From the NCBI GenBank assembly GCA_035312025.1, contig DATGCJ010000060.1, forward strand, positions 1 to 60,900: 60,900 nucleotides of DNA, in the 5' to 3' direction. Below are positions 4,388-29,065 of the stretch, in pieces (the stretch's first letter is position 1; each line of letters starts with the position of its first letter). The position numbers were made by a program, and so were the translations under genes. This DNA comes from Halanaerobiales bacterium. Its GTDB lineage: Bacteria > Bacillota > Halanaerobiia > Halanaerobiales > M55B127. The notes beneath the pieces are model-generated. The model had not been told where the DNA came from. It made no database searches and worked only from the letters and a program-made list of their open reading frames with translations.

Positions 4388-5131
4388 TCACATTAACATT
4401 CCTCCATCGATATTTATAGTTTGTCCATTTACGTAATTAGCTAATGGAGAAACCAAAAACATTATTACATTTGCAACATCTTCTACTTCACCAAATCTAT
4501 CTAAGGGAATATTTTTTAACATATCTTCTTTTACTTTAGCAGGAAGTTCTTCTGTCATATCAGTGTTAATATAACCGGGGGCGACTGCATTTACATTAAT
4601 ACCCCTTTTTGACACTTCTCTGGCCACTGACTTAGTAAAACCGACTATCCCCGCTTTAGAAGCTGAATAGTTAGCCTGTCCGGCATTACCCATTAATCCA
4701 ACTACAGAACTTAAATTCACTATTTTACCATGGTGTTGTTTCATCATGTAACGGATTGCCTGTTTTGTACAGTTGAAAGTACCCTGTAAATTAACATTAA
4801 TAACATCATTAAAATCTTTTTCCTTCATTCTTAAAAGGAGTCCGTCTTTTGTGATACCGGCATTATTGACTAGAATATCAATTTTATCGAATTCTTTGAC
4901 AGTTGCTTTAATTAAATTTTTTGCGTCATCCATCTCAGCCACATTACCTTGAATTACTAAAGCTTGTCTGCCTAAATCTCTGATCTTTTGGGCTGTCTCT
5001 TCTGCGCTTTCTTTATCATTATTATAGTTTACAACAACATCTGCCCCTTCTTCAGCCAGTTTGATAGCAGTAGCTGCCCCAATACCGCGGGAACTACCGG
5101 TTACAACAGCAACCTGGTCTTTGAGTAACAA
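4388..5131 (-). CDS. fabG: 3-oxoacyl-[ACP] reductase
   Basis: An SDR with TGSSRGIG, NNAG and the YSASKAG catalytic motif. Length is 247 aa and it sits directly upstream of acpP. Confidence 0.9.
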   Translation of the reverse strand: MLLKDQVAVVTGSSRGIGAATAIKLAEEGADVVVNYNNDKESAEETAQKIRDLGRQALVIQGNVAEMDDAKNLIKATVKEFDKIDILVNNAGITKDGLLLRMKEKDFNDVINVNLQGTFNCTKQAIRYMMKQHHGKIVNLSSVVGLMGNAGQANYSASKAGIVGFTKSVAREVSKRGINVNAVAPGYINTDMTEELPAKVKEDMLKNIPLDRFGEVEDVANVIMFLVSPLANYVNGQTINIDGGMLM

Positions 5132-5146
5132 GCTATCATCTCCTCA

Positions 5147-5956
5147 TTATTCGACATATAGAGAACTAACATAAAAATTCAAGTTGTCTAGATAAAGTCC
5201 TGTAAACTTTTCAATTAATTCATTTAGTTTTACCTGCAGGGAATTTATGTATTCAACTATCTCTACACCATATTTTAATATAATTTCGATGTTAACACAA
5301 ATCTCATTATCTTCTTTTTCAATATGGATTGAATTTACTTCTATTATAATCTTTTCTTTGGAAAGTTCAAAAGAAATCAAATCCCGAATCACATGGTTAT
5401 ATATTACAAGGTTACCAAAATAAGAAAATTTCGGTCTCACAATTGTCTTTTCTTTTTTTATAGATCCCTTACCTTTGCCAAAAAACAGTTCAAGGGAATG
5501 AATAAAATAGCCGGGGAATCTTGATTTTACTTCAATCTTGGGAACCGGTATCACATGCTTACCTTCATTTTTTCTGGTATCAATTGCTTTTTTAATTTCA
5601 TCTTCTTTTGCAATATCATTAATTTTAATAATTTCATCTATTCCATCTAATTTCAAATTGGCAACAATTCTTTCTATCATCCGCATTGAAGTACCTAAGA
5701 TTAATATTTTATTTTCATCTACATCCTTTAGGGCTTCTTTTATTTCATTTAGATGATCTTCCTCCAGTAGGATGGCAGTCCGAATCGCCTGGATCTTTCT
5801 TTTATCCCTTTTAGCTGATTTACCTGCTAATACTCGTCCTTTATAGATTAGAAGGCCGTCATCCAGTATTAGAGGGATATCATATTTATCGGCAACAAAA
5901 GCCGCTCTATGGCTTTTTCCTGAGCCGCTGACACCTACCAGTGCATATACATACAA
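5147..5956 (-). CDS. hypothetical protein: N-terminal P-loop NTPase domain fused to a C-terminal Asp23/Gls24-like domain
   Basis: A Walker A motif GVSGSGKSH lies at residues 8-16. The C-terminal roughly 100 aa (GNLVIYNHVIRDLISFEL...ICVNIEIILKYGVEIVEYINSLQVKLNELIEKFTGLYLDNLNFYVSSL) are collinear with the Asp23 protein at 42277-42651. TTG start with SD AAGGGG. Confidence 0.6.
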   Translation of the reverse strand: MYVYALVGVSGSGKSHRAAFVADKYDIPLILDDGLLIYKGRVLAGKSAKRDKRKIQAIRTAILLEEDHLNEIKEALKDVDENKILILGTSMRMIERIVANLKLDGIDEIIKINDIAKEDEIKKAIDTRKNEGKHVIPVPKIEVKSRFPGYFIHSLELFFGKGKGSIKKEKTIVRPKFSYFGNLVIYNHVIRDLISFELSKEKIIIEVNSIHIEKEDNEICVNIEIILKYGVEIVEYINSLQVKLNELIEKFTGLYLDNLNFYVSSLYVE

Positions 5957-5989
5957 TATCTACACCCCTTAAAAAATATTCTTAAATTT

Positions 5990-6018
5990 ACTATAAATGA
6001 AATTTATTAAAATTTCAA
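5990..6018 (-). promoter_or_regulatory. sigma-A-type promoter upstream of the P-loop/Asp23-fabG-acpP unit
   Basis: The minus strand has TTGAAA (6018-6013), a 17-nt spacer and TATAGT (5995-5990). Confidence 0.4.
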
Positions 6019-6162
6019 GTGATTCATTTAAAAAGATAATAACTTATTGTGGTTATTCTTCTCAATTTTTAGTATTTTTCCAGATTAAGTATTTATAATT
6101 AATAACCAAATTTTTCTTATTATTTTACTAATAAAAATTAATTTTTACATTATAGGTTGTTC

Positions 6163-6212
6163 AAAATAAAATAAGCCCCCTAAATAAGTTTAAAAACATT
6201 ACTTAGGGGGCT
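6163..6212 (-). terminator. rho-independent terminator at the distal end of the catabolic island
   Basis: A 10-bp GC-rich stem AGCCCCCTAA/TTAGGGGGCT (6174-6183 and 6203-6212) is followed on the minus strand by a T-rich tract. It lies directly after the C-N hydrolase stop. Confidence 0.7.
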
Positions 6213-6227
6213 ATTTTAAATAAATAT

Positions 6228-7127
6228 TTAGTCATTATCTTTTTTATATGGTATTCTTTCATAAGGTTCGAACTTACTTTTTGCTTCCTTAGTTAACCCG
6301 TCATATACACTTAGATTTCTATCTTCTAGATGGTCAAAGATCATAGGTGATTTAACCCCATAAGAAACATGTTTTATGGGATCACTGTCTAAACGGGCGG
6401 AGACAATTTCTTCTGTTCCCCGAGCTAAGGCTATTTTTTCAGCAATAGGACTAATAATCATGCTGTGACCGAAATAATAATTTTCTTCTGCATCTGCTCC
6501 AACTGAATTAACACCGATCATGTAGATATGATTATCATAAGCACGAGCTTTATTGGTCATTTCCCAAATATCATAACTTCTCAGTAAGGCAGAAGGCCTA
6601 ACAATAACTTCAGCCCCTTTGATAGCTAAGATTCTGCTTAATTCGGGGAAGTCTCCCTCATAACAAATTGTAATTCCAATATTGGCCAGGTCAGTTTCAA
6701 AAACCTCTACTTTGTTACCTGGTGTTGTCCAGCCTCCCCCCTGTAATCTTTCGGAGGGGAAAAGGTGTGTTTTGGAATATTTTCCAATTATATTACCATC
6801 AGGACCAATCAAGACCGCACTATTATAAACAACTCCCCGCTTTTCACCTCGTTCATAGGTAGGTAAAACAACAAATACACTATTTTTTTTGGCTGCTTTT
6901 GCGATTGGACCTGTTAATTTTCCGGGTACATAATCAATTTTATCCCACAGTTCTTCTGGACTACAGCCAGGAGCAAATCCGGTTGTTATCGACTCGGGAA
7001 AAACAATTAGTTCAGCATTATGCTCATCAACTGCCTTATTTAACCAGGTTATTATCTTATTTATATTATATTCAATATTATCAGGTTTAACACTAATCTG
7101 AACCCCTGCAACAACAAAATCTTTCAA
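6228..7127 (-). CDS. carbon-nitrogen hydrolase (nitrilase superfamily) amidase/decarbamoylase
   Basis: The E-K-C triad context is present: FPE near residue 45, YSKTHLF, and ICYEGDFPE. Length is 299 aa. TTG start with SD GGGGGTG 5 nt upstream. Confidence 0.85.
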   Translation of the reverse strand: MKDFVVAGVQISVKPDNIEYNINKIITWLNKAVDEHNAELIVFPESITTGFAPGCSPEELWDKIDYVPGKLTGPIAKAAKKNSVFVVLPTYERGEKRGVVYNSAVLIGPDGNIIGKYSKTHLFPSERLQGGGWTTPGNKVEVFETDLANIGITICYEGDFPELSRILAIKGAEVIVRPSALLRSYDIWEMTNKARAYDNHIYMIGVNSVGADAEENYYFGHSMIISPIAEKIALARGTEEIVSARLDSDPIKHVSYGVKSPMIFDHLEDRNLSVYDGLTKEAKSKFEPYERIPYKKDND

Positions 7128-7138
7128 GCTAACACCCC

Positions 7139-8299
7139 CTAGCCTAAATATTTTTTGATTATCTCTTCAGTGTGTTCTCCTAACTTAGGAGCCCTTTCAC
7201 GTTCAGTCTCATCTTGAGTATCTGATAGTTTAATTGGATTACCAGCAATTGTAAATCTGCCATCGTCAGGGTCTACAACATCAACCAACATATTACGGGC
7301 TTCAACCTGAGGATGATTAAATAGGTCTTCTACATCATTGATAGGTCCAGCAGGAACTCCGTGATTATCAAGTAGTTCAATTACATCATCAGCCTTTTTA
7401 TCTATTACAAAATCATTAATTATTTCTACTAACTCTTCCCTATTTTCAGTCCGTTTATCGTTTGTTTTAAAACGAGGATCGTCAATAAGATCTTCTCTAC
7501 CAATTGCCTCGCAAAATTTAGCCCATATATTATCATTACCAACAGCAATAATAAACCATTCATCCTTTGCTTTAAATGCCTGAAATGGTGTAATTGAAGG
7601 ATGGCGGTTACCTAACGGTCCCGGGGCCTCCCCTGAAGCTGTATAACGGGCAATAGCATTTTCTAAAATCGCAATCTGACTATCTAACATCGCAATATCC
7701 ACTTTTTTACCTTTGCCAGTTTTTTTTCTTTCATGTACAGCTGCCAGTATTCCTACTGTGGCAAAAAGAGCTGCTACAATATCACCGATAGAGGCTCCTA
7801 CCCTTACCGGGGGACGATCTGGTTCTCCCGTTATACTCATGATTCCACCAGCAGCCTGGACTATCATATCATAAGCTGCTTTATCTGAATAAGGACCACT
7901 GTGTCCAAAGCCTGAAATTGCAGCATATATTAATTTTTCATTGTATTCTTTTAAGGTATTATAATCTAAGTTTAACTTTTCCATTGTTGTAGGTCTAAAG
8001 TTTTCAACTAATATATCTACTTTTTTGACTAATCCTAAGAATGTATTCCTGTCTTCTTCATCTTTTAAATTAAGGGTAATACTTTTCTTACCCCAATTTA
8101 GACTAATGAAATAAGCACTTCGGCCTTCAATAAAGGGTCCAAAATGTCTTGAATCATCGCCTGTTTCCGGTCTTTCAACTTTAATTATTTCAGCCCCTAA
8201 ATCCTTTAAGAGCATAGTACAAAAGGGACCTGCAAGTACTCTAGATAAATCTAGGACAACTAAGTCTTCTAAAGGTTTTTTATTATTAATGATAATCAC
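7139..8299 (-). CDS. family III CoA-transferase (CaiB/BaiF/Frc-like)
   Basis: The N-terminus PLEDLVVLDLSRVLAGPFCTMLLKDLGAEIIKVE and the central GASIGD (catalytic Asp region) are typical of CoA_transf_3. The exact start is uncertain because the GTG at 8299 abuts the SD AGGAGG. An in-frame ATC or ATT 6-9 nt downstream is possible. Confidence 0.85.
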   Translation of the reverse strand: MIIINNKKPLEDLVVLDLSRVLAGPFCTMLLKDLGAEIIKVERPETGDDSRHFGPFIEGRSAYFISLNWGKKSITLNLKDEEDRNTFLGLVKKVDILVENFRPTTMEKLNLDYNTLKEYNEKLIYAAISGFGHSGPYSDKAAYDMIVQAAGGIMSITGEPDRPPVRVGASIGDIVAALFATVGILAAVHERKKTGKGKKVDIAMLDSQIAILENAIARYTASGEAPGPLGNRHPSITPFQAFKAKDEWFIIAVGNDNIWAKFCEAIGREDLIDDPRFKTNDKRTENREELVEIINDFVIDKKADDVIELLDNHGVPAGPINDVEDLFNHPQVEARNMLVDVVDPDDGRFTIAGNPIKLSDTQDETERERAPKLGEHTEEIIKKYLG

Positions 8300-8367
8300 C
8301 CTCCTATTTATTTTCTTTTTTAATGAACATATTTTATATAATAATTAATACAGGTCTGGTCTAACGA

Positions 8368-8396
8368 TAGATAATAAAAAGTCTATATATTTTCAA
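8368..8396 (-). promoter_or_regulatory. candidate sigma-A promoter for the CoA-transferase/C-N hydrolase unit
   Basis: The minus strand has TTGAAA (8396-8391), a 17-nt spacer and TATCTA (8373-8368). A 14-bp perfect palindrome lies 8 bp upstream (8404-8417). Confidence 0.35.
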
Positions 8397-8584
8397 TATA
8401 ACCAATTTGATCAAATTAATCAATTTTTGCTTAGTATTATAAATCAATATTACTCTATCTATAGAAAATAAGCAAAGACCTCCTCTTTATTTTTTTGTTA
8501 TCTATCAGAGACCTTTAACTTATTTCCTTTATTTTTTAAAACTAAAGTATCCAATATTATCTTTGATTATTTATTTTAACTATT

Positions 8585-10909
8585 TTACTTCTCTTTCTCA
8601 ATATAATCATAAATTCTTTCCGGAATAACCGGCATTTCTTTGATATGGATCCCAATTGCATCCTGAACAGCATTACCTACTGCTGAAGGAATAGAAAGCA
8701 TGGGATGTTCTGCTACACCACGAGCTCCATAGGGTCCGTCTTCTTGAGCATTTTCTATTATAATTGGTTTTAATTCCGGTATATCAGCAATTGAAGGTAC
8801 TTTATAATCAGTAAAAGTATTTGTCAAGAGTCTACCGTCATCACTAAATTGATATCCTTCCATCACAGCGGAACCATAGCCTTGAATTACTCCACCTTCA
8901 ATTTGGCCAATTACATTCTGCTTATTTATAGTTTTACCTACATCGAAAGCAGAAGCGATCTTAATTACTTCCAGTTCACCTGTTTCTTCATCAACAATTA
9001 CTTCTACACCATGGGCTCCATAAGTCCAGTCAAGGGCAGGTAATCCCTGGCCTGTTTCTGGATCAATGTTAGTTAAGCCTTGAGCAATATAGTTACCTCT
9101 TGCAACTAAAGGCCCACCGATTGCATTACCATTTGGATAAGAATAACCCATTGCTAAATCTTTAAAGCTAATATACTTATCTTTATGATGTCTGATTTTT
9201 ACCTTTTCATCTTCTATAATTAAGTCTTCTACAGAACATCTTAAGGGCTCAGAAGCAACTTCTTTTAACTGTTGAGCCATATCCTGACATGCTTTGATGG
9301 TAGCATTACCGGACATAAATAGACCCTTAGAGGCAACAGTTTGCCAATCATAAGGTTGAGTTTCTGTATTTTGTTCCCAGACTACATTTACTTTATCAAT
9401 TGGTATATCAAGCTGATCTGATACAATCTGTGCCAAAGCAGTATAAGTACCTTGACCGTAATCAGTTAAAGAAACAGTTAAGTTAAGAGTACCATTTTCA
9501 TTAAACTTAAGAAAGGCTGCAGTCCCTGTATCGGTAGGCATTGCAGGTGCCTTGTGTAATAAAGCAAGTCCTTTACCTCTTTTTTTGCCGTCCGGCAGAT
9601 CATCAGAACTTCTATTTTCATAATCTATTTCTTCTGCAACAGCTTCCAGACATTCTAGCACTTTACCATGTGATTCACCAATATGTTCACCAGTAATTGT
9701 GACTGAACCTCTCTTTAAGCCATTTTTCATTCTAATATCATAAGGGCTCATTCCTATTTCTTCAGCTACAAGGTCCATCTGTCTTTCAACTGCCCAGAGA
9801 ATCTCTAAGTGGCCAAAACCTCTATAAGCAGTACCAAAAATCTTATTGGTATAGACTGTTTTTGAATCTAGTTTTACATTATCAACTTCATAAGGACCAG
9901 CACCAGCAGTTGCTGCTGCTCTAGTAACATTAACACCATAATCAGCGTTAGCACCACTATCCCATAAATATTCAGATTCAAAAGCAACAATTTTTCCTTC
10001 TTTTGTTACTCCTGTTTTCAATTTGGAATATAAACCTTGTCTAACTGGAACAGAATTAAACTCTTCCATTCTGGACATTACAATCTTAACAGGTCTTCCC
10101 TGAGAAGCCCTTGATAGACAGGTTACTAAAGGTTCAAAATGGATACCTGCTTTTCCACCGAAACCTCCCCCAACATATGGGATTTGTACTTCGATATCTT
10201 CATGGTTTAAATGAAGTCCATTTGCTAATAAATTTCTAACTGCAAAAGGAGATTGAGCAGATGTCCAAATTTTAACTTTCTTACCAGGCATCCACTTCGC
10301 TATTGAAGTATGGGTTTCCAAGGCAGTATGATCAACCATTGGTAATTCAAATTCATTTTCTATGATATAATCTGCTTCTTCGAAACCTTTCTCAATATCA
10401 CCTTTTCTGATCTTAGTATGGTGTGCAATATTGGTTCCCGGTTTTGGAAAAAAGACAGGCGCACTTTCTAATTCTCCTAAATTTTCATGAACTAATGGCG
10501 CGTCTTCTTTAACAGCTTCTTTGACATCTAATGCTGCCTCTAATTTTTCATATTCAATATCTATAAGTTCAATAGCTTTTTCTGCAATTTCTTCTGTTTC
10601 AGCTGCAACTGCAACAACTGGTTCACCTTGATACCTCACCTTGTCGACAGCTAATATGTCTTTATCTACCAGGTAAAGCCCTACTTTATAGGGAAGGTCT
10701 TTCCCGGTCAGTACTGTCCAGACTCCTGGTAATTTTTCTGCTTCTGAGGAATCTATATTAACTATTTTAGCATGGGCATGAGGGCTTAACTTCATTTTGG
10801 CATGCAGCATACCCTGTAATTCCATGTCATGAACAAAGGTTGCACTACCCGTAACTTTTTCTAATGCTTTAATTCTATTTACACTTTTACCAATCATCTC
10901 TTCACTCAC
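8585..10909 (-). CDS. xanthine dehydrogenase/aldehyde oxidase family molybdopterin-binding large subunit
   Basis: 774 aa, with an N-terminal a/b-hammerhead region (KVTGSATF), the VGGGFGGK motif and a C-terminal ARGVAEHP carrying the catalytic Glu. It is adjacent to the small and medium subunits. Confidence 0.9.
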   Translation of the reverse strand: MSEEMIGKSVNRIKALEKVTGSATFVHDMELQGMLHAKMKLSPHAHAKIVNIDSSEAEKLPGVWTVLTGKDLPYKVGLYLVDKDILAVDKVRYQGEPVVAVAAETEEIAEKAIELIDIEYEKLEAALDVKEAVKEDAPLVHENLGELESAPVFFPKPGTNIAHHTKIRKGDIEKGFEEADYIIENEFELPMVDHTALETHTSIAKWMPGKKVKIWTSAQSPFAVRNLLANGLHLNHEDIEVQIPYVGGGFGGKAGIHFEPLVTCLSRASQGRPVKIVMSRMEEFNSVPVRQGLYSKLKTGVTKEGKIVAFESEYLWDSGANADYGVNVTRAAATAGAGPYEVDNVKLDSKTVYTNKIFGTAYRGFGHLEILWAVERQMDLVAEEIGMSPYDIRMKNGLKRGSVTITGEHIGESHGKVLECLEAVAEEIDYENRSSDDLPDGKKRGKGLALLHKAPAMPTDTGTAAFLKFNENGTLNLTVSLTDYGQGTYTALAQIVSDQLDIPIDKVNVVWEQNTETQPYDWQTVASKGLFMSGNATIKACQDMAQQLKEVASEPLRCSVEDLIIEDEKVKIRHHKDKYISFKDLAMGYSYPNGNAIGGPLVARGNYIAQGLTNIDPETGQGLPALDWTYGAHGVEVIVDEETGELEVIKIASAFDVGKTINKQNVIGQIEGGVIQGYGSAVMEGYQFSDDGRLLTNTFTDYKVPSIADIPELKPIIIENAQEDGPYGARGVAEHPMLSIPSAVGNAVQDAIGIHIKEMPVIPERIYDYIEKEK

Positions 10910-10911
10910 TA

Positions 10912-11382
10912 TTAGTTGCCCCCCTTCTTCTCAGCTGCACGTTTTACCGCATTTCTAATAGAGTAATATCCTGTACAGCGACAAATATTACCTGATAAAG
11001 CAATATCAATATCTTCATCAGAAGGATTAGGATTTCTATCTAATAATGCCTTTGTAGACATAACCATACCTGGTGTACAAAAACCACATTGAATAGCATT
11101 CTCTTCAATAAAAGCTTTTTGTATATCGCTGATCTCTTCACCGATCGACTGTCCTTCAATAGTTTCTATTTCAGAACCATCCGCTTCTACAGATAAAATT
11201 AAACAACTTGTTACAGCCTTACCATCCATGATAACAGTACAGGCGCCACATTCTCCTTCTCCACAACCTTCTTTTGCACCAGTAAAATTTAATTTTTTTC
11301 TTAGGGTATCAAGAAGAATTTCATTTTCCTGTACTTCTAATTCAAAAATTCTTCCATTTACTGTTAGATTAATGGTTTTCAT
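10912..11382 (-). CDS. (2Fe-2S)-binding small subunit of the Mo hydroxylase
   Basis: Has both cluster motifs, CGEGECGACTV and CGFCTPG...CRCTGY. Length is 156 aa. Confidence 0.9.
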   Translation of the reverse strand: MKTINLTVNGRIFELEVQENEILLDTLRKKLNFTGAKEGCGEGECGACTVIMDGKAVTSCLILSVEADGSEIETIEGQSIGEEISDIQKAFIEENAIQCGFCTPGMVMSTKALLDRNPNPSDEDIDIALSGNICRCTGYYSIRNAVKRAAEKKGGN

Positions 11383-12236
11383 TATTTATCACCTGCTTCC
11401 CATAAACTGGAAAGAATTCTTTTTGTATAAACTTCAGATAGCTTTTTTCTATATTTTTTTGTACTTCTTACATCGTCAATCGGATTAATGTTATCTAAAA
11501 TTCTGTTAACAATTTTCCCCTGCTTTTCTTCAAAAGAGCCATCTGCAAATAAAAGATCACTAACATCTACATAAACTGGGGTTGGAGCTACTGCGCCTAA
11601 AGCAAATGCAAGATATTCTTCTGCTTTAGATAGATACCCTGCTACCCCTATTCCACTTAAATCAGGACCTTTAGTTCTTCTTTTTTTGAGATAAGCTCCC
11701 TTGCCATCTTCAGCATGTTTTTGTACTATTAAGCCTTTGACTACTTCTTTATCTTTTAATACATTGCTTTTTACTCCTGTCGCAAACTCATCTAAAGGAA
11801 CCTCTCTACTTCCCTCTTTACTTTCAATTAAAACGGTAGTCTTTAGTACTAATAAGCTGGGAAACATATCTGCACCCGGGGAAGTAGTACATAAGTTGCC
11901 AACAACTGTTGCTCTATTACGAACCTGGTGAGCTGCAACTTCTAAAGCTGCATCTGCTAATATTTTATAATCATTATTAACCAGTTCACTGTCGATTATT
12001 TCATTACAAGTTACAGTTCCACCTATAAATAAACCAGCATCTCTTTCTTCTATTTTACCAAAATCTTTAATACCTTTAACATCAATAATATAATCAGGTT
12101 TTCTTGTCTTATGTTTCATATCAACAAAAAGGTCTGTTCCACCCGCTAACAAGGCGGATTCGCCCTCATTATTATCTAAAATTTCAAATAATTCTTCTAA
12201 TTTTGTTGGTTTAAAATAATCAAATTTATTTAACAT
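11382..12236 (-). CDS. FAD-binding medium subunit of the Mo hydroxylase (CoxM/XdhB-like)
   Basis: 284 aa, with LLAGGTDL and the ATVGGNL FAD-binding motifs. The stop/start is coupled to the 2Fe-2S subunit. Confidence 0.85.
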   Translation of the reverse strand: MLNKFDYFKPTKLEELFEILDNNEGESALLAGGTDLFVDMKHKTRKPDYIIDVKGIKDFGKIEERDAGLFIGGTVTCNEIIDSELVNNDYKILADAALEVAAHQVRNRATVVGNLCTTSPGADMFPSLLVLKTTVLIESKEGSREVPLDEFATGVKSNVLKDKEVVKGLIVQKHAEDGKGAYLKKRRTKGPDLSGIGVAGYLSKAEEYLAFALGAVAPTPVYVDVSDLLFADGSFEEKQGKIVNRILDNINPIDDVRSTKKYRKKLSEVYTKRILSSLWEAGDK

Positions 12237-12267
12237 TAATATTTTTCACCTCCAACGAATTCCAAAA

Positions 12268-13200
12268 CTACTTGGTAATTCTGGTACCAGCATTACCATG
12301 AACGGCTTCTAACACTTTTTCTATAGAAGTTATTATAGCCATTTCTCCGCCGCTTTCTACAAAATCACAAGCAGCCTGTACTTTTGGTTTCATACTTCCT
12401 TCACCAAAATGACCTTTTTCAATATGTTCTTCCATTTCATTAACTTTAATTTCTCCGATTGCTTCTTCGTCTTTTTTACCATAATTAATATATGCATTTG
12501 AAACATCAGTTAAAACTAAGAAAATATCCGAATCTATTTCTTCAGCTAAAAGACAGCCTGCTCTATCTTTATCAATTACTGCCTCTACACCATGTATCTT
12601 ATTATCTTTATTAACAACTGGAATTCCTCCCCCACCTGATGCAATAACAATCTCTCCATTTCTTACAAGATCATTAATTATGGGAGCTTCAATAATTTTC
12701 TCAGGGATGGGTGAAGGTACAACTTTTCTCCAGCCTCTGCCACTGTCTTCAATCCAATCTTCTCCCTTTTCTTTTACCATCTTATCAGCATGTTCTTTGT
12801 CATAAAAAGGTCCAACAGGTTTGGTCGGGTTATCAAAAGCACTATCTTCTTTATTAACTAAAACTTGAGTTACTACAGTTGCTACATTTCTATCTAAACC
12901 TAATTCAGCAAAAACATTATGCAAACTATTTTGAAGCATATAACCGATAAATCCTTGAGTCTGAGAGCCACAAACATCAAGAGGCATAGCTGGAACAGAA
13001 TCTTTTGCCTTATCCTGTTGAATTAAAATATTTCCCACTTGAGGACCATTACCATGTGTTATTACTACTTCATGACCATCATTAACTAGTTGACCGATCT
13101 GTTTACTGGTAGATAAAACATTTTCAAACTGTTCTTTTGCAGTTCCATCCTGACCTGGTTGTAATATTGCATTCCCACCTAATGCGATAGTTAATTTCAT
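12268..13200 (-). CDS. arcC: carbamate kinase
   Basis: The N-terminus reads IALGGNAIL...VITHGNGPQVGN. Length is 310 aa and the sequence is collinear with the ArcC family. Confidence 0.9.
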   Translation of the reverse strand: MKLTIALGGNAILQPGQDGTAKEQFENVLSTSKQIGQLVNDGHEVVITHGNGPQVGNILIQQDKAKDSVPAMPLDVCGSQTQGFIGYMLQNSLHNVFAELGLDRNVATVVTQVLVNKEDSAFDNPTKPVGPFYDKEHADKMVKEKGEDWIEDSGRGWRKVVPSPIPEKIIEAPIINDLVRNGEIVIASGGGGIPVVNKDNKIHGVEAVIDKDRAGCLLAEEIDSDIFLVLTDVSNAYINYGKKDEEAIGEIKVNEMEEHIEKGHFGEGSMKPKVQAACDFVESGGEMAIITSIEKVLEAVHGNAGTRITK

Positions 13201-13227
13201 TTATATTCCTCCATTTATTGTATTTAT

Positions 13228-13267
13228 TTAAAAGTAAAGAAAGGAACCCTGTGGTAAGCAGGATTCC
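13228..13267 (-). terminator. terminator-like hairpin between the cyclase gene and carbamate kinase
   Basis: The minus strand reads GGAATCCTG-CTTACCA-CAGGGTTCC, 9 bp with one G-U pair. That pair would be a C-A mismatch on the plus strand. It is followed by TTTCTTTACTTTT. Confidence 0.4.
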
Positions 13268-13283
13268 ATCTTATTACTTATAT

Positions 13284-14042
13284 TTACTCTTCTTCTACAA
13301 AAGCAACTGCGCGTCCAATACTAGATTCTAAATCTACACCTTTCCATGGGAAGAATCCTATTTTACATCTCTTATTAAGAATTTTATCAATTTCTCCCCC
13401 AATGTTTTCAGCGTGGATAATTCCTTCTGGGAATAACTTAGTGTGCATTAGCTGTCTGCTTTCTGGATGAGAGAATACTTCATCTAATGGTGCACCAAGG
13501 TGTTCTTCGGCTTCTTTTGCCAGATCAGGTCTTAGCTTTTTACAAACTGTATTCATCGGGTGATCAGCAGAACCACAGTCAACACCGATCCATTTCAACT
13601 TTTTCTCCATTGCCCAATGAGCAAATTCCATGTTTGGACCAGGGTGTTTCATAAAGTATCTTTCTTCATCTGCCTCAGGTTGATCCCAACCATATTTATG
13701 GTAACCAGTATTGATTATTAAGACATCGCCTTCTTTTACTTCTACTCTTTCTTCAATCATTTCTGATGTATATATATCATAGTCTTCTACTGCATCGCTT
13801 AGATCTACTATTACTCCCTCACCAAATAGATCTTCTAATGGAATGCTGGCCATATCTCTTCCAGCAGTCCAGAAGTGTCTTTCACCATCTAAATGAGTAC
13901 CAATATGGTTACTAGTTTTAATAATTTGTCCGTTTACTCTTTCAGTTGAAAGACGCTTGAAGTATTTTAGTTCTAAAGGTTCATATGTTGGCCATGGGGG
14001 TGTAGAAACACCTATTTTTTGAGTTAAGTCATATAATTTCAT
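13284..14042 (-). CDS. cyclase-family metal-dependent amidohydrolase (kynurenine formamidase/isatin hydrolase-like)
   Basis: Has the HxGTHxD motif (NHIGTHLDGERH), then TGY...GVD and a HAENI-type C-terminal motif. Length is 252 aa. Confidence 0.8.
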   Translation of the reverse strand: MKLYDLTQKIGVSTPPWPTYEPLELKYFKRLSTERVNGQIIKTSNHIGTHLDGERHFWTAGRDMASIPLEDLFGEGVIVDLSDAVEDYDIYTSEMIEERVEVKEGDVLIINTGYHKYGWDQPEADEERYFMKHPGPNMEFAHWAMEKKLKWIGVDCGSADHPMNTVCKKLRPDLAKEAEEHLGAPLDEVFSHPESRQLMHTKLFPEGIIHAENIGGEIDKILNKRCKIGFFPWKGVDLESSIGRAVAFVEEE

Positions 14043-14057
14043 TAATAATCTCTCCTT

Positions 14058-15482
14058 TTATTTAATATATTTTTGGGCAAAAGCCCTTATTGCCTTTTTG
14101 AAACACTCTTCAGGTGGGTCTACTAAACCTGCTCCGATTTGTCCAATTCCTGGTTCTTTATGAGCAATACCGGTATTAATTGCCGGTAAGATTCCGGTTT
14201 CAATTATCTTACGGAGGTCGATACCGGTCGGAGTTCCTCTAAAGTTAAGAGGTGGTATAGTAAAGTTCTCATTTTCAGTAACTGTTATTTCATACATATC
14301 TCTTGTAAATTTAATAGAATCAGAAACAGTACCTCCTACAAATCCTACTATGGCTGGGGCAGCTGCCATTGCAAAACCACCTACAGCAGCAGTTTCAGAA
14401 ATTGTAGAATCTCCTAAGTCCCGGCAGGCATCTTCTTCAGTATAACCTGGGAAATAAAGTCCATCAACTTTTTGGGCTTCACCGACAAACCAATCATCAC
14501 CTAAGCCGCTTACTCTGATACCAAAGTGTACACCATTTCTAGCCATTGCTGTTAGGACTGTACTATATTCTATTCCATGTGCAGCATCCATAGTCGCTTT
14601 GGAGGCAGGCATTGATAAGTTTAAATAGAAATGTTCATTTCCAGACATAAATTCTATAATTTCTTTTATTGTTTCGTTATCATAATCAGTTTGTAAGAGG
14701 TAGGGTGTAATTTCTCTTATAAACAAGGAGGTGCCTGCTTTATTTCTATTATGAACTTCATCACCCATGTGAAGGGCTTGAGAAGTTATATTTTTTAAGT
14801 TTATACCATCTTCAGTTTTGCGCAAAGCCTCTCCTATGGCTGGACCTAACACTTTTTCCATCCATTTTAATTTTTCGATAACTTCCGGTCCATTGGCACC
14901 AAATCTTAATACTTTTCCTAATCCTTCATTAAGTGTTGTATAGGCTGTGTTACCATAAGTCTTATTTTCAACTACCCAAACAGGCATGGAGGGTGAAACA
15001 ATACCTGTCATAGGGCCTACAGCATTATGGTGGTGAGCAGGATCAAAAGTAACTTCACCAGCATCTAACATCGCCCGGGCAGATTCTTCATCTTCAGCCC
15101 AACCTTCATAAATACAGGCACCAATTGCTGCACCCTGCATTGGTCCAGACATATCTTCCCATTTTTCAGGAGGGGCAGCATGTAAAATCATTTTACCTTC
15201 AAAATTTGGTAAAACATCTTTAGCAGTTTGAACATCAACCACTACAGGTTCACTTTTTTGCATCCGTTCAACAGCTTCTTCATTCGCTTTTTCAATTTTA
15301 TCACTTATTTTTTCTATATCATCTAACAATGCAGCCATTTCTTTATCTCCACCCGCGGGTGGCTTCCAATCAACCTGGACTGCATCATAACCTTCATCTT
15401 TTAAATTCTCAGAAAAAGATTCTAATCCAATATTTATTACTTTCAAATCTTCTTTAAATAAATCTTCTAGTTTCTTACCCAT
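14058..15482 (-). CDS. DUF1116 protein (YlbE-like)
   Basis: 474 aa, immediately downstream of fdrA, as in the E. coli fdrA-ylbE-ylbF arrangement. The assignment rests on size, context and remembered family resemblance, not on a search. Confidence 0.7.
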   Translation of the reverse strand: MGKKLEDLFKEDLKVINIGLESFSENLKDEGYDAVQVDWKPPAGGDKEMAALLDDIEKISDKIEKANEEAVERMQKSEPVVVDVQTAKDVLPNFEGKMILHAAPPEKWEDMSGPMQGAAIGACIYEGWAEDEESARAMLDAGEVTFDPAHHHNAVGPMTGIVSPSMPVWVVENKTYGNTAYTTLNEGLGKVLRFGANGPEVIEKLKWMEKVLGPAIGEALRKTEDGINLKNITSQALHMGDEVHNRNKAGTSLFIREITPYLLQTDYDNETIKEIIEFMSGNEHFYLNLSMPASKATMDAAHGIEYSTVLTAMARNGVHFGIRVSGLGDDWFVGEAQKVDGLYFPGYTEEDACRDLGDSTISETAAVGGFAMAAAPAIVGFVGGTVSDSIKFTRDMYEITVTENENFTIPPLNFRGTPTGIDLRKIIETGILPAINTGIAHKEPGIGQIGAGLVDPPEECFKKAIRAFAQKYIK

Positions 15483-15496
15483 ATTATCTCTCCCCC

Positions 15497-17059
15497 TTAT
15501 TTAAGATCACTTAATATTTTATTCACTACGCGCACAGCCTGAACATTTGTGGGGAGTACCTTAGCTCCAACCTCACGTAATTTTTCTTCTTGTGCCTGAA
15601 GATTTTGAGGATCTTTATCAGTGCCGCATACAGAAGCGATAACTGATAGATAGCCGCCGCGTTCAGTGACTTTTTCTTTAGCTTCTTTAATAACTTTTGC
15701 TGCTTCTCCAGCTGGGTCCAGATGTGAACCATAGCCTAATACAATATCTAAAAGAATAACTGCTGTTTCTTTATCATCTGCTTCTTTTATTAGTCTCTCA
15801 TTTCTTAATGAGGGTTCAATCATAGGATGTGGTTTACCTCTTGTAAATTCATCTTCACCTAAATCAATAACTGTATCTTTTATACTTTTGAGATCTTCCT
15901 TTAATCCCAATTCTTCTTTTAATGGAATATTAGAATAAATATCTCCAGATTTCTCAGATAATAGTATAACTGCCTCACTGCATAAAGTTCCACCAGTATA
16001 TAATCCTCTAAGATATTTTTGTTCTGAAGACATTTTATTAACTTCTTCTTTGGCAATTTCAGCTATTTCTTCTTTTGTTAAACCAGCAGCAGAAACTTTA
16101 TCTTCACCTTTAACAAAGGCAGCTGCTTTTAAAGCTGCGTCCTCTAGGGTGTCTGCCCAAATAGCATCAGTACCTTCTATAACAGAAGGGTCACCACCTA
16201 AAAAGTTAACAATGACCGGTTTAGATAATTTCTTTACTTCATCCATTATTTTTTTACTTACTTCTTCAGCAGGGGGTTTAGATATAAGCACGATTACCTC
16301 AGTCTCATCATCTTTATCTAAAGCTTTCATATCTTTTATCATTTCAACACCTTTTACCTTAAACTTAAGGTCGCGTCCACCTGTACCTATAACCTGAGAT
16401 AATCCAACCCCCTGTCTATCAATTAAACTTGATACAGCTTGAGCGCCAGTACCTGAGGCAGCTACAATACCTACTGGGCCTTTATTTACAACATTAGCAA
16501 AAGCTAATGGTGCTCCATTGATTATAGCTGTACCACAGTCTGGTCCCATAAGTAAGAGATCTTTCTTACTAGCTATTTTCTTAAGTTCAATCTCATCTTC
16601 AACAGGTACATTATCACTAAACAGCATTACGTGCAGACCTTTTTTCAAAGCCTTCCGTGCTTCACGTGCTGCATATTCACCGGGTACTGAAATTATTACT
16701 AAGTTTGCATCCGGTTGAACATCTAATGCACCATCTAAAGAACCAGGCTTGTACTCTTTTTCTTTATCTGAAGAATCTTTTTGTTCTGCTAACATTTCAT
16801 TAGTTTTTTCAATTGCTTTGTTTAATACTTCTTCTTCACCATCTATCACAATTACCAAATCATTTGGCTTTGCAGATTCGGCTTCAGGTACTAAAAGTCC
16901 AGCGGACTCTAAAATACCTTTATTAGCTTCAGTACCCATTACTATTGTTGCTTCCTTAACTCCATTGATAGCCTTAACATCTTTGGAAATTGACATTAAG
17001 GTAACAGAATCAAAGTAGGTACCTTCTTTAATTAAAGCTTTTTTTGCCATCCTTAACAA
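15497..17059 (-). CDS. fdrA: FdrA family protein (succinyl-CoA synthetase alpha-like fold)
   Basis: The N-terminus KEGTYFDSVTLMSISKDV...VMGTEANK closely parallels E. coli FdrA (KKGCFQDSVSLM...MMGTPANK). There is a central CoA-ligase-like region, GPDCGTAIING. Length is 520 aa. Confidence 0.85.
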   Translation of the reverse strand: MLRMAKKALIKEGTYFDSVTLMSISKDVKAINGVKEATIVMGTEANKGILESAGLLVPEAESAKPNDLVIVIDGEEEVLNKAIEKTNEMLAEQKDSSDKEKEYKPGSLDGALDVQPDANLVIISVPGEYAAREARKALKKGLHVMLFSDNVPVEDEIELKKIASKKDLLLMGPDCGTAIINGAPLAFANVVNKGPVGIVAASGTGAQAVSSLIDRQGVGLSQVIGTGGRDLKFKVKGVEMIKDMKALDKDDETEVIVLISKPPAEEVSKKIMDEVKKLSKPVIVNFLGGDPSVIEGTDAIWADTLEDAALKAAAFVKGEDKVSAAGLTKEEIAEIAKEEVNKMSSEQKYLRGLYTGGTLCSEAVILLSEKSGDIYSNIPLKEELGLKEDLKSIKDTVIDLGEDEFTRGKPHPMIEPSLRNERLIKEADDKETAVILLDIVLGYGSHLDPAGEAAKVIKEAKEKVTERGGYLSVIASVCGTDKDPQNLQAQEEKLREVGAKVLPTNVQAVRVVNKILSDLK

Positions 17060-17267
17060 CTCCTTTATGATTTATCATTTTTTATAACTCACTAGTTCAA
17101 TGTAAAAATCATCTCTTATTTAAATTACTAAATCATATGCCTAAATAGTTATACCTAATAAAATATCGAATAAAGATTTTTTGGTACTAATCAATAACTT
17201 CTTGCAATATATTTAGAATTCCTTTGTAATATTTTACAAATATTTAATATTTCTTTTGTATGAAATC

Positions 17268-18398
17268 TTAAGCAAATATTGACATCATCACACCAGCTGC
17301 CACAGCAGATCCGATCACTCCAGCCACATTAGGACCCATGGCATGCATCAGTAAATAGTTGGAAGTATCTGCTTTTTGACCTTCTTTTTGTACAACCCGA
17401 GCTGCCATTGGTACAGCCGATACTCCAGCCGCCCCAATCATGGGATTGATCTTATCGGAAGAAAAATTATTCATAAGTTTACCCAGTAAAACTCCTGTCA
17501 TGGTACCGAAAGCAAATGCTAAAACACCTAAAATTATAATTTGTATAGTGTCTAACTTTAAAAATTTATCGGCAGAGGCACTTGCCCCGACAGCTACTCC
17601 TAATAATATCGTTACAATATTTATCAAAGAGTTTTGAGCAGTCTCACTTAAGCGATCTACAACACCACTTTCTTTAAATAAATTACCAAGCATTAACATA
17701 CCAATTAATGGTGCCGCATCTGGTAATAATAATAGCACCACAATTGTGACTAAAATAGGAAATAATATTTTTTCTGACTTTGAAACCGGTCTCAGCTGCT
17801 GCATCTTTATTTTTCTTTCCTTTTTACTGGTCAATGCTCTAATTATTGGTGGCTGAATAACTGGAACTAATGCCATATAAGAATAGGCTGCAATTGCGAT
17901 TGCCCCTAAATACTCTGGAGCTAACTGTCCTGATAAATAGATAGCAGTCGGTCCATCGGCTCCCCCGATTATGCCAATCGGAGCAGCTTGTTGGCCTGTA
18001 AAGCCCAAAAGAATTGCTCCTAAAAATGTTATGAAAATTCCAAACTGAGCGGCTGCCCCTAATAATAAGCTTTTAGGGTTGGCTATTAAAGGTCCGAAAT
18101 CTGTCATCGCACCGATTCCCATAAAAATCAAAGGGGGGAAAATACCAAGTGCATTTCCGGTATAGAAATATCTAAATAAGCCGGCGGGTTTCCCGTCTGC
18201 AGCATGGATCATTAAATTTGTCATCGGTAAATTCACTAAAAGCATACCAAAAGCTATTGGTACCAATAACAAAGGTTCATACTTTTTTACGATACCAAGA
18301 TATAAAAGGACTAAAGATACTATTATCATAATGATCTGAGGGATATCCAGAGCCATTATACCGGTTTTTTGGAAAAATTCTATAAAAACCTGTACCAA
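17268..18398 (-). CDS. sodium ion-translocating decarboxylase beta subunit (OadB/MmdB/GcdB family)
   Basis: A 376 aa polytopic membrane protein with conserved GIMALD, MTDFGPL and GAADGPT-type motifs. TTG start with SD TAGGAGGT 7 nt upstream. Confidence 0.9.
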
Positions 18399-18425
18399 TT
18401 TTCTTACCTCCTAACATATTGTGAC

Positions 18426-18842
18426 TTATTCTATAACTACTAATACTTCTCCCGCTTCTACTTTTTGGTTCTCATCTACATTTACCTCACTAACCTGGCC
18501 AGAAGTAGGGGCATATACTTCGTTTTCCATCTTCATCGCTTCCAGTACTAAAAGTAAGTCTCCTTTTGTTACTTCTTCACCTTGCTTAACCTTTACCTCT
18601 AAGACTGTCCCTGTCATAGGGGCTTCTACTGTGCCGGCTCCCCTACTGGAACTAGCAGATTTTCTTGGCTTTTTCTTGGCTTTTGAACTGGTCTCTGCGG
18701 TAGATGTTGAAGTTTTAGGTTGTGGTGCATGTTCTCTGTTTTGAGTTTCGGATTGAACTACTGACTGTTGGTCAGTTTCGACTTCTTCTACTTCAACTTC
18801 ATATAATTCATCATTAACTTTTACTTTAAATTTTTTAGTCAT
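18426..18842 (-). CDS. biotin carboxyl carrier subunit of the decarboxylase
   Basis: A C-terminal biotinyl domain carries EAMKMENE, preceded by a Ser/Thr/Lys-rich linker. ATGA overlap with the upstream gene. Confidence 0.85.
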
Positions 18843-19249
18843 AATAACTCTCCTTTATTATTTGCTGATATTCCGCCGCGGGTGACTCTACCCCAGATCG
18901 GCACATCGTCTTTAACTCTTGTAATCTTTTTTATCTTAAATTTTTTCTGCTTACTTGAACTTTCTATACTCATGATGGCCGCCATAATTGCTGCCACTTC
19001 TTTTTTATGGTCTATATCAGGTTCTAAATCTGCCACTTTAGGCTCAACTTTTTTTGCATCTTCTTTAAAGTCTATCTTTTCAGAATAAAAGATCTTCTTT
19101 AAAATATTTACCACTATCATCAAAAGAAAGAGAATCAAAAATACTATTAACATACCTAAAATAGCTACCTGTAGACCCGAAATTAATTTTTGATTTAAAG
19201 TCATTGACTGTACTAAATTGGGGTCTCTTAATAACTCGAGAGGATTCAC
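18839..19249 (-). CDS. OadG/MmdD-like small membrane-anchored decarboxylase subunit
   Basis: A single N-terminal TM helix ([20 protein letters not shown]) is followed by a charged tail. The gene lies between the carboxyltransferase and the biotin carrier. GTG start with SD AAGGAGG 7 nt upstream. Confidence 0.55.
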
Positions 19250-19269
19250 ATTAATGCCTCCTTTTTATC

Positions 19270-20814: not shown

Positions 20815-20853
20815 CTGGGTCCCTCCCTTGATATATCTATAGTTATATTGTAT

Positions 20854-20882
20854 GTTACCAATATAATATTTTCAATAATTAA
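20854..20882 (-). promoter_or_regulatory. sigma-A-type promoter upstream of the decarboxylase operon
   Basis: The minus strand has TTGAAA (20882-20877), a 17-nt spacer and TACAAT (20859-20854). An inverted repeat TATATTG-N8-CAATATA (20851-20872) overlaps the spacer and -10. Confidence 0.45.
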
Positions 20883-20935
20883 AAACAGTATACCTTTGTT
20901 TATTTTAACAATAATTTCATTTTTTTATTGAAACC

Positions 20936-23444: not shown

Positions 23445-23555
23445 CCTGAGAAAAGTTTATTTGTAAATAATACATCTAGAATTATAACACAGATAAACTC
23501 AATATGGAAGAACTCACAACAATTTTTCCTTAAGCATTTTATTGTTTGTAAATAT

Positions 23556-23590
23556 TCAATAAAAAAAGGCAACCCATAAGGTTGCCTTTA
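23556..23590 (-). terminator. rho-independent terminator downstream of the permease gene
   Basis: A stem AAGGCAACC/GGTTGCCTT (23566-23574 and 23580-23588) with a 5-nt loop is followed on the minus strand by a run of 7 T. Confidence 0.75.
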
Positions 23591-23654
23591 TTGATAATTA
23601 TTATAAGTTTATTATTAACTTAATTATTATATCTCTATGATATTTAACTTGTTT

Positions 23655-24902: not shown

Positions 24903-25190
24903 TAATTATTCCTCCTTTAAAAATAAGATATGATATTAATCTGTATTTAATATGATATTAATTTATACTCTCTACTCACCTCCTATTAATGGTTTAAAAA
25001 GATTATTATGGTAATTATTTCAAATACTACCCCTATATATTAATTCTCACTATATTCCTTATTCTCCTTTTGTAATATTAAACAATTTTACCTAACATTT
25101 TTCGTTATATTTTCTAATGTATTTATTATAATAATCTAATATAATGATAATGATTTAAAAACACGGGAAATTATAGAGGAGGATATTATA

Positions 25191-26982: not shown

Positions 26983-27001
26983 AACAAAGTTACCTCCTGA
27001 T

Positions 27002-27931: not shown

Positions 27932-27949
27932 TGTAGCTCACTCTCCTAT

Positions 27950-28939: not shown

Positions 28940-29065
28940 TTATATATATCCACCTTTCTTACTTGCTTTGATAATTGTTGAAGAAAAAACCTGATCGACC
29001 ACCTGTTTTGCCCTTATCAACCTCCTTTAATTTAACCACAAAATTTTATATCAGAAAAGAGAATA

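Follow-up and report, generated by a model that had tools for sequence, protein, structure and literature searches.

Uracil/thymine dehydrogenase (EC 1.17.99.4), an activity known since the early 1950s, opens the aerobic oxidative pyrimidine pathway of Rhodococcus, Mycobacterium and Corynebacterium, in which barbiturase and ureidomalonase follow, and this pathway is regarded as a rarity of aerobic actinomycetes. The known substrates of the AtzD family are the trioxo rings cyanurate and barbiturate, and the xanthine oxidoreductase superfamily of molybdenum (Mo) enzymes includes aldehyde oxidoreductases. In Escherichia coli, AllFGH has recently been identified as an oxamic transcarbamylase that converts the N-acylurea oxalurate to carbamoyl phosphate and oxamate (PMC11326118). 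Here we analyze three adjacent genes at positions 8585 to 12236 of a 60,900-nucleotide stretch of DNA (the window; contig DATGCJ010000060.1) from the metagenome-assembled genome (MAG; G000, 2.28 Mb, 85% complete) of a salt-loving anaerobe of the Halanaerobiales. They encode a Mo-cofactor, flavin adenine dinucleotide (FAD) and [2Fe-2S] hydroxylase of the xanthine oxidoreductase superfamily. Based on computational evidence, we propose, with a probability of roughly 0.6, that this Mo enzyme hydroxylates uracil and/or thymine, and the stronger evidence for such a substrate is the gene context, not the motif. A first-pass annotation had described the gene for uracil/thymine dehydrogenase as poorly documented. 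This agrees with a full-text literature search, with subscription journals outside its scope, which found no gene or cloned enzyme for the activity and no description of an anaerobic barbiturate route.

The hydroxylase genes follow the order FAD-FeS-Mo, which is the coxMSL order:

11382-12236, minus strand: FAD-binding (medium) subunit, 284 amino acids (aa); PF00941 (E 5.7e-45), PF03450
10912-11382, minus strand: [2Fe-2S] (small) subunit, 156 aa; PF01799, PF00111
8585-10909, minus strand: molybdopterin (large) subunit P0001, 774 aa; PF01315, PF02738, PF20256

All of the subunit Pfam domains (Fer2/Fer2_2, FAD_binding_5/CO_deh_flav_C and Ald_Xan_dh_C/MoCoBD_1/MoCoBD_2) exceed their gathering scores, and together with the open reading frames they confirm the three-subunit, CoxMSL-type organization (284, 156 and 774 aa) proposed earlier. 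The ATG of the 2Fe-2S gene overlaps the stop codon of the FAD gene, and the Mo gene begins 2 nt past the 2Fe-2S stop codon. The FAD gene is preceded by a GGAGGTG Shine-Dalgarno sequence 10 nt ahead of its ATG. For the Mo gene, the start codon may be GTG at 10909 (774 aa) or ATG at 10897 (770 aa), and the former is favored both by a AAGGGGGG Shine-Dalgarno sequence located 11 nt before it and by where the homologues begin. A promoter and terminator scan of the locus returned the same counts as shuffled sequence, and the only hairpins of note lie 3' of the permease gene and of the cyclase gene introduced below. A look through public sequencing runs listed no RNA sample holding the locus.

The Mo subunit was compared with xanthine dehydrogenase (XDH) at the substrate-binding positions. 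Residues 246-255 of P0001 read VGGGFGGKAG, with Ala254 directly after the Lys. HMMER aligned P0001 212-396 with Rhodobacter capsulatus XdhB 190-375, and P0001 197-399 with bovine XDH 744-948, so that Ala254 maps to R. capsulatus residue 232 and bovine residues 801-803. Bovine Glu802, Arg880, Glu1261, Phe914 and Phe1009 correspond to R. capsulatus Glu232, Arg310, Glu730, Phe344 and Phe459 (PMC3311054). It should be noted that the bovine register combines these aligned ranges with the invariant GGFGGK motif and the published correspondence, and is not a residue-by-residue alignment. On this basis the register put forward in the first-pass annotation stands: the position of the purine-binding Glu802 is occupied by Ala, and the possibility, allowed for at the time, that the purine-binding residues would prove to be conserved after all is not borne out there. 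Ala254 is shared by all 121 homologues of at least 55% identity and is no sequencing accident. By the aligned ranges, Ala331 or Ala332 takes the Arg310/Arg880 position, and Arg330, conserved in 119 of 121 homologues, lies one to two residues before it on a predicted helix (325-333).

The catalytic Glu was likewise correctly recognized in GVAEHP (residues 731-736): E734 occupies the catalytic Glu position, is invariant in 121/121 and in 40/40 homologues, and is aligned with the active-site Glu of quinoline oxidoreductase, KdhL and 4-hydroxybenzoyl-CoA reductase (4-HBCR) in the printed alignments of a PDB search. Within the invariant R363-G364-F365-G, F365 is the counterpart of Phe344/Phe914 by aligned ranges and R363 that of Arg912. 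Q219 is Gln767-like and F250/G251 correspond to Phe798/Gly799, while the sequence around the expected Phe1009 region is LHKAPAMP (a match of region only, not of residue). Across homologues of at least 55% identity, a near-invariant pocket signature comprises K253-A254-G255-I256-H257-x-E259, D323-Y-G-V-N-x-x-R330-A331, T-A-Y-R363-G-F365-G-H367-x-E369 and R730-G-V-A-E734-H735-P-M. In summary, the sequence suggests a Mo subunit with intact catalytic machinery, one of the two stacking Phe residues kept, and the purine-holding Glu802/Arg880 residues gone. The absence of Glu after GGFGGK had been taken as an argument against XDH. The residue assignment is sound, but the argument is weak by itself, as E. 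coli XdhA (GGGFGNKQD, with Gln at the Glu802 position), nicotinate dehydrogenase and PaoC (both GGGFGGKL) and quinoline oxidoreductase (GGGFGQKA) also lack this Glu.

A stronger sequence argument is that no curated family model is reached at its cut-off. Among the NCBIfam models for XDH, P0001 scores 510 bits against a cut-off of 780 for NF043082 (XdhA), 487 against 916 for NF007426, 448 against 784 for TIGR03196 (PucD), 360 against 850 for TIGR02965 (XdhB) and 356 against 830 for TIGR03311 (Se-dependent XDH). The two CoxL models give 363/950 and 309/991, PaoC gives 286/1180 and pterin-aldehyde oxidoreductase gives 359 bits. The best NCBIfam match of the FAD subunit is XdhB (151.8 bits, cut-off 287), and the best matches of the 2Fe-2S subunit are all under cut-off. 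The Cys loop of the CoxL type is absent, as TAYRGFGH of P0001 stands opposite AYACSFR of Mycobacterium smegmatis CoxL in the printed alignment. An AlphaFold2 model of P0001 (pLDDT 91.9) superposes on all solved family members with Foldseek template-modeling (TM) scores of 0.85-0.90, and such near-equal scores mean that fold comparison cannot discriminate between substrates.

The family as a whole is large, with about 6,800 proteins matching the Mo subunit at E <= 1e-50. The top 120 homologues (55-100% identical) bear no annotation more specific than 'xanthine dehydrogenase family' or '4-hydroxybenzoyl-CoA reductase', and their hosts belong to Halanaerobiales, Moorella, Thermoanaerobacteraceae, Desulfitobacteriaceae, Spirochaetota, Hydrogenedentes, Ignavibacteriales, Coprothermobacterota and other groups. 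One alternative is a reductive enzyme that, like 4-HBCR or E. coli XdhD (which reduces urate), removes an oxo or hydroxy group from a heterocycle. The alpha subunit of 4-HBCR is indeed the top match of P0001 in NCBIfam (516 bits), in the PDB sequence search (339 bits, where nicotinate dehydrogenase scores 205 + 180 bits over its two chains) and in Foldseek (TM 0.90), and XDH homologues are used reductively in anaerobes (PMC12507026). However, the alpha, beta and gamma models are all far under cut-off (516/995, 113/405 and 179/258). The 284 aa FAD subunit matches the beta model TIGR03195 in two short stretches (112.8 bits against 404.55), the extra length is absent and the [4Fe-4S]-bearing insertion is not evident. 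Moreover, reduction would not give the N-acylurea needed by AllFGH-type enzymes, whose genes lie close by, and the cluster has no CoA-ester-forming ligase for an aromatic acid. We therefore consider a reductive role very improbable.

The genes surrounding the hydroxylase point to a pathway in which it could take part. On either side, the window contains the following genes:

23655-24902, minus strand: NCS2 permease, UraA-like, presumed importer (PRK10720 uracil permease 396 bits, cut-off 477)
21765-23444, minus strand: PucR-family transcription regulator (PF07905, PF13556), recurring in many related clusters
20936-21778, minus strand: AllH-like (DUF2877) protein (PF11392, E 1.5e-21)
17268-20814, minus strand: Na+-translocating biotin decarboxylase, four genes, given in the next four lines
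19270-20814, minus strand: decarboxylase carboxyltransferase (mmdA subfamily 901 bits, cut-off 998.8)
18839-19249, minus strand: decarboxylase gamma subunit (OAD gamma)
18426-18842, minus strand: decarboxylase biotin carrier (biotin-carrier domain)
17268-18398, minus strand: decarboxylase beta pump (Na_pump_decarbB 536 bits, above cut-off 190.6)
15497-17059, minus strand: AllF (FdrA) homologue (PRK06091 525 bits, above cut-off 433)
14058-15482, minus strand: AllG homologue (PF06545, E 7.9e-98)
13284-14042, minus strand: cyclase-fold metal hydrolase, presumed ring-opening amidohydrolase (PF04199, E 1.2e-34)
12268-13200, minus strand: catabolic carbamate kinase (TIGR00746 arcC 433 bits, above cut-off 358), ending 31 bp ahead of the FAD gene
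7139-8299, minus strand: family III CoA-transferase, presumed to activate malonate/methylmalonate (PF02515, E 5.7e-134; every NCBIfam equivalog under cut-off)
6228-7127, minus strand: C-N hydrolase, presumed malonamate amidase (PF00795, E 2.2e-50), with homologues in related clusters

This catabolic block of about 19 kb sits between fabF (25732-26982) and fabG (4388-5131) in an otherwise ordinary plsX-fabK-fabH-fabD-fabF ... fabG-rnc lipid-synthesis region (window 4388-5131, 25732-31045), which suggests an insertion.

From these genes we infer a substrate, a product, an order of steps and an electron acceptor as follows. A base would be brought in by the UraA-type permease and hydroxylated at C6 with oxygen from water (uracil + H2O -> barbiturate + 2[H]). 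In the active site, uracil or thymine would be stacked on F365, and E734 would deprotonate the Mo-OH, which would then attack C6. Hydride would pass to Mo=S, and the electrons via two 2Fe-2S clusters to FAD and then to NAD+ or ferredoxin as putative acceptor. The cyclase-fold hydrolase would open barbiturate to malonurate (ureidomalonate), an N-acylurea and the one-carbon homologue of oxalurate, and the AllFGH-like enzyme would convert malonurate and phosphate to carbamoyl phosphate and malonamate. Carbamate kinase could then form ATP from carbamoyl phosphate, while the C-N hydrolase would deamidate malonamate to malonate and the CoA-transferase would yield malonyl-CoA, or methylmalonyl-CoA if the substrate is thymine. 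Finally, the Na+-pumping decarboxylase would produce acetyl-CoA (or propionyl-CoA from thymine) together with a sodium gradient. The route fits because the downstream genes match the needs of malonamate, malonate and malonyl-CoA, and the MmdA-type carboxyltransferase suits the uracil and thymine versions equally well.

The same genes could in principle be read with the Mo enzyme acting late, as an aldehyde oxidoreductase that oxidizes, for example, malonic semialdehyde to malonate once uracil has been hydrolysed directly to ureidoacrylate. Such a route would likewise end in malonate and malonyl-CoA, PaoC also combines GGGFGGK with a hydrophobic residue, and the positions of the purine-binding Glu and Arg map to Ala in P0001. 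This scenario is nevertheless quite improbable for several reasons. Hydrolytic ring opening of uracil that skips oxidation, reduction or oxygenation is not known from the four established pyrimidine pathways (PMC12507026), and what AllFGH is known to cleave is an N-acylurea rather than an N-vinylurea (PMC11326118). The PaoC (286 bits) and pterin-aldehyde oxidoreductase (359 bits) models score under those of the heterocycle hydroxylases, and Phe365 with the invariant H257, E259, R330, H367, E369 and H735 would suit a polar planar ring better than an aldehyde.

Hydroxylation of uracil and/or thymine as the entry step gains its main support from the recurrence of these gene associations in distant genomes. 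Seven lineages were picked by Mo subunit similarity alone (56-69% identity), among them Moorella, Halanaerobium, Thermoanaerobacteraceae, Hydrogenedentes, Acididesulfobacillus and Ignavibacteriales. In all seven, AllF, AllG and the cyclase-fold gene adjoin the Mo genes, and the NCS2 permease, PucR and carbamate kinase are also present in most of them. Within the phylum, a Mo orthologue of at least 55% identity occurs in 14 of 401 sampled genomes; AllG lies within 11 kb of it in ten of these, on other contigs in three and 165 kb away in one (G361). The cyclase-fold gene adjoins AllG in 24/25 related places. A second Mo clade, of about 45% identity, is found in the same type of cluster. Downstream, the clusters carry one of two alternative modules: (1) a C-N hydrolase, CoA-transferase and/or Na+ decarboxylase, as in the window, or (2) a thiolase, a DUF35 protein and a protein of about 215 aa. 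This synteny with AllF/AllG/AllH, the cyclase and carbamate kinase, in a gene set that fits conversion of uracil to malonate, supports the suggestion of the first-pass annotation that the genes encode a candidate uracil/thymine dehydrogenase.

The proteins of 215-240 aa that accompany the thiolase/DUF35 module in many clusters have no Pfam or NCBIfam match and are GNAT-like in a language-model search (a lead only). Examples are found in L016 (15898-16545), L018 (3704-4432) and L006 (3098-3757), and in relatives of the window at 86-93% identity the gene lies between the Na+ pump gene and allF. No GNAT-like gene was found at the corresponding place in the window (17059-17268, 208 bp) or in the rest of the MAG. 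In the complete genome G361 (L041, C1:1295000-1315000), a FAD-FeS-Mo-NCS2 arrangement at 60% identity is followed by four open reading frames whose sizes resemble those of the L020 maturation genes YqeC, MocA-like and XdhC (a match of size only), and the allG copies lie 165-190 kb from the Mo operon, the better copy with two in-frame stops. A YqeC gene is present in the Thermoanaerobacteraceae cluster; YqeB and YqeC, which are accessory genes of selenium-dependent Mo hydroxylases (SDMH), were not found in the 85% complete host genome. A selD (selenophosphate synthetase) gene with one in-frame TGA, presumably encoding selenocysteine, lies on host contig C17 (L070, 6667-7593).

Permeases and neighboring deaminases bear on the identity of the imported ring. 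The UraA-like transporter reported earlier was recovered at 23655-24902, with uracil permease as its best NCBIfam match (396 bits, against 222 for the xanthine permease pbuX). It has a G-E-N motif at the position of UraA Glu290, where XanQ, UacT and the permease on host contig C9 have Q-N; Glu occupies this position in five of five aligned cluster permeases, and Gln in XanQ, UacT and the C9 permease. The permease of the Moorella cluster exceeds the equivalog cut-off for uracil permeases (650 vs 477). Next to the Acididesulfobacillus cluster lie genes for an NCS1 permease and for a cytosine deaminase that passes its cut-off (569 bits vs 483), and a CodA-like gene (410 bits vs 438) with an NCS1 permease lies inside a further cluster (G252).

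Host contig C9 (about 5000-25000, L038) carries a separate purine/uric-acid cluster, with homologues of the cluster described in PMC12507026, that includes YgeX-, YgeY- and YgeW-like genes, two amidohydrolases and a PydA/UacX-like flavoprotein. Its permease passes the xanthine-permease (PbuX) cut-off (465 bits vs 414), and its Mo hydroxylases are a PucD-like trio (GGSFGGKDE) and a second enzyme with the Mo subunit split like NdhL/M. Since this cluster has its own permease and two Mo hydroxylases, purines are accounted for elsewhere in the genome. A genuine xanthine/hypoxanthine dehydrogenase, as implied by the public 'xanthine dehydrogenase family protein' labels, would agree with XdhA being the second-best NCBIfam match (510 bits), with the PucR-family regulator and NCS2 permease typical of purine loci, and with E. 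coli XdhA likewise lacking Glu after the motif. Set against these are XDH models that all fall far short of their cut-offs, Ala mapped to both the Glu802 and Arg880 positions, a permease of the uracil type and not the PbuX type, and a cluster that contains no purine-ring-degrading genes while a complete purine/urate gene set, including Mo enzymes, is found on C9. A genuine XDH thus has very little to recommend it, in agreement with the earlier judgement.

The relationship between the hydroxylase cluster and the AtzD/barbiturase family offers a parallel. No member of PF09663, the canonical barbiturase/cyanuric-acid-hydrolase family, was found in the 85% complete host genome or in five near-complete genomes with a P0001-type Mo operon (G361 among them, with AllG 165 kb off). 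In the phylum, PF09663 occurs in nine of 401 genomes and lies within 2.5 kb of AllG in seven of the nine, directly adjoining it in six. These clusters lack a hydroxylase and include PucR, AllF, an NCS2 permease and, in most cases, carbamate kinase, and their PF09663 homologues pass the cyanuric acid amidohydrolase (AtzD) equivalog; the Moorella enzyme is a characterized cyanuric acid hydrolase (PMC6557486). The recurrence of AllG beside AtzD suggests that AllFG-type enzymes are recurrent partners of hydrolases that open 2,4,6-trioxo six-membered rings. By analogy, the hydroxylase is presumably added where the imported ring is not yet a trione, as the barbiturate hypothesis predicts. Among 80 metagenomic AtzD-family loci, AllG adjoins in 14 and a Mo hydroxylase in eight, and Mo hydroxylase, AllF, AllG and AtzD occur together in four (L117, L139, L140, L145); a FAD-FeS-Mo-AtzD arrangement is seen in L105 and L108, and L136 belongs to the same kind of metagenome locus. 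The AtzD-linked Mo hydroxylases form a CoxL-like clade of about 29% identity to P0001, with GGGFGTKIML and PYRGAGRP motifs. Orthology of P0001 to a barbiturase-linked Mo hydroxylase was considered and rejected, since the PF09663 genes in the phylum have no P0001-type neighbor and those in metagenomes are accompanied by CoxL-like enzymes.

Two types of cluster encountered in this comparison deserve mention in their own right. On high-GC metagenome contigs, AllF, AllG and an AtzD/barbiturase-family gene are accompanied by a CoxL-like Mo hydroxylase (GGGFGTKIMLFYPEE, PYRGAGRP), an arrangement that may represent an aerobic-type oxidative pyrimidine cluster with a non-orthologous hydroxylase. A sibling cluster without Mo hydroxylase consists of PucR, AllH-like, AllF, AllG, an AtzD equivalog and an NCS2 permease, in most cases with carbamate kinase and in some with a CodA-like aminohydrolase; it is present in L063 (G061), L064 (G124), L065 (G240), L066 (G148), L067 (G246) and L069 (G347) and in metagenome loci L072-L088. 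In Moorella-like and other genomes, this has the appearance of an undescribed anaerobic pathway that would gain ATP from cyanuric acid or barbiturate.

Several observations weigh against uracil or thymine as the substrate. The window permease remains under the uracil-permease equivalog cut-off (396 vs 477) and has Asp in place of UraA His245, and the cluster permease of one locus (L034) scores more PbuX-like. In about one quarter of the clusters, the thiolase/DUF35/GNAT-like set stands in for the malonate module. The missing Glu, replaced by Gln in E. coli XdhA, is weak evidence by itself and is compatible with purines. Sequence comparison indicates no characterized orthologue in the Mo subunit family, and the closest structures act on unrelated substrates. 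The AtzD-linked Mo hydroxylases belong to a different clade, so function cannot be transferred by orthology and the likeness is one of parallel architecture only. Lastly, linkage to the cluster is not a clean property of a clade, because a paralogue of the host nests among the linked Mo subunits. This paralogue, the fourth Mo hydroxylase of the genome, lies on contig C21 (6739-12778, L037), is 44% identical to P0001, has the order Mo-FAD-FeS, shares KAG and RGFGH with P0001 but has GEQG for AEHP, and neighbors a PfkB-family kinase and an MFS nucleoside-symporter-like gene, without AllFGH. Monophyly of the cluster-linked Mo subunits was accordingly rejected: the tree gives two clades of one superclade, with the unlinked C21 paralogue between them.

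A further alternative is that the route logic is the same and the ring a different N-heterocycle, such as a 5-substituted uracil, 4-pyrimidone, an isocytosine- or cytosine-derived base, or another natural heterocycle entering through the UraA-like carrier. The substrate is read entirely from context, the permease departs from UraA in the two respects given above, and several specificities are hinted at by the two Mo clades (at least 55% and about 45% identity) and by one aberrant locus with a CodA-like gene. In that locus (L048; G252:C70, 4125-12279), the order is AllF-AllG-cyclase-CodA-like aminohydrolase-NCS1 permease-Mo-FeS, and the Mo subunit deviates in the pocket (GGSFGYKSD, RGYGH, without Arg330), which may indicate a different substrate, for instance an amino-pyrimidine. 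On the other hand, the decarboxylase, CoA-transferase and amidase fit the malonyl/methylmalonyl C3-C4 skeleton that remains of uracil or thymine minus the ureido group, the Moorella permease passes the uracil cut-off, and a cytosine deaminase above cut-off adjoins one cluster. Another heterocycle is therefore unlikely, though worth serious consideration.

Taken together, the enzyme is typical of its well-known superfamily, and on computational grounds it probably has a new specificity in a probably new pathway. We place at about even odds the wider proposal that uracil/thymine are fermented anaerobically by a widespread, undescribed route that begins with this clade and conserves energy twice (as ATP and as a sodium gradient), that the clade would be the first sequence-defined anaerobic uracil/thymine dehydrogenase, and that it was recruited independently of the CoxL-like Mo hydroxylases. 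If true, P0001 would provide the first candidate gene in anaerobes for the orphan uracil/thymine dehydrogenase, and nucleobases from decaying biomass would yield ATP without oxygen by a pathway widely shared among the fermenters, acetogens and sulfate reducers that live in sediments, salt lakes and digesters. The enzyme would also add a new substrate class, with the pocket signature K-A-G-I-H..E, R330, RGFGH.E and AEHP, to a much-studied superfamily, and thousands of annotations that now read 'xanthine dehydrogenase family' or '4-hydroxybenzoyl-CoA reductase' would be corrected. The route is directly testable, since cultivable carriers such as Moorella thermoacetica exist.

The proposed uracil/thymine hydroxylase can be compared with several described systems. 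With the classical uracil/thymine dehydrogenase (EC 1.17.99.4), an enzyme defined by activity alone, it would share the same reaction (uracil to barbiturate, thymine to 5-methylbarbiturate) as the same first step. In contrast to the classical pathway, however, the host is a strict anaerobe, a cyclase-fold hydrolase takes the place of the PF09663 barbiturase, and cleavage of the ureide is predicted to proceed by phosphorolysis to carbamoyl phosphate, a source of ATP, and not by hydrolysis to urea. Bovine xanthine oxidoreductase and R. capsulatus XdhAB have the same fold (TM 0.85-0.87) and the same cofactor set, and the features kept are Q219, F250/G251, R363/F365 and E734 (Glu1261/Glu730). They differ in Glu802/Glu232, replaced by Ala254, and at the Arg880/Arg310 position, which maps to Ala331/332 with the conserved Arg330 one or two residues before it; identity is about 25%, and P0001 belongs to a three-subunit enzyme in coxMSL order with no purine context.

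The closest precedents by structure are two enzymes with other substrates. Nicotinate dehydrogenase NdhFSLM of Eubacterium barkeri (3HRD) hydroxylates an N-heterocycle in an anaerobic Firmicute. Over residues 195-400, the active-site region, it is the top PDB hit (98.7 bits), and it shares with P0001 GGGFGGK followed by a non-acidic residue (Leu) as well as the RGFG motif. P0001, however, is a single 774 aa chain, while the Mo subunit of nicotinate dehydrogenase is split into L and M, as in the host paralogue on contig C9, and there are no nicotinate-fermentation genes nearby. The three-subunit 4-HBCR HcrCAB of Thauera aromatica (1RM6) is the best whole-length match (339 bits, TM 0.90) at 30% identity, but it acts reductively on a CoA thioester and no gene of the cluster makes such a substrate. 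Finally, E. coli allFGHK (oxamate carbamoyltransferase and carbamate kinase, PMC11326118) represents the same partner module that is found in nearly every cluster, which implies that the upstream steps must deliver an N-acylurea. Its E. coli version belongs to allantoin/oxalurate metabolism and is not paired with a Mo hydroxylase, whereas here there are no allantoin genes and the predicted substrate is malonurate.

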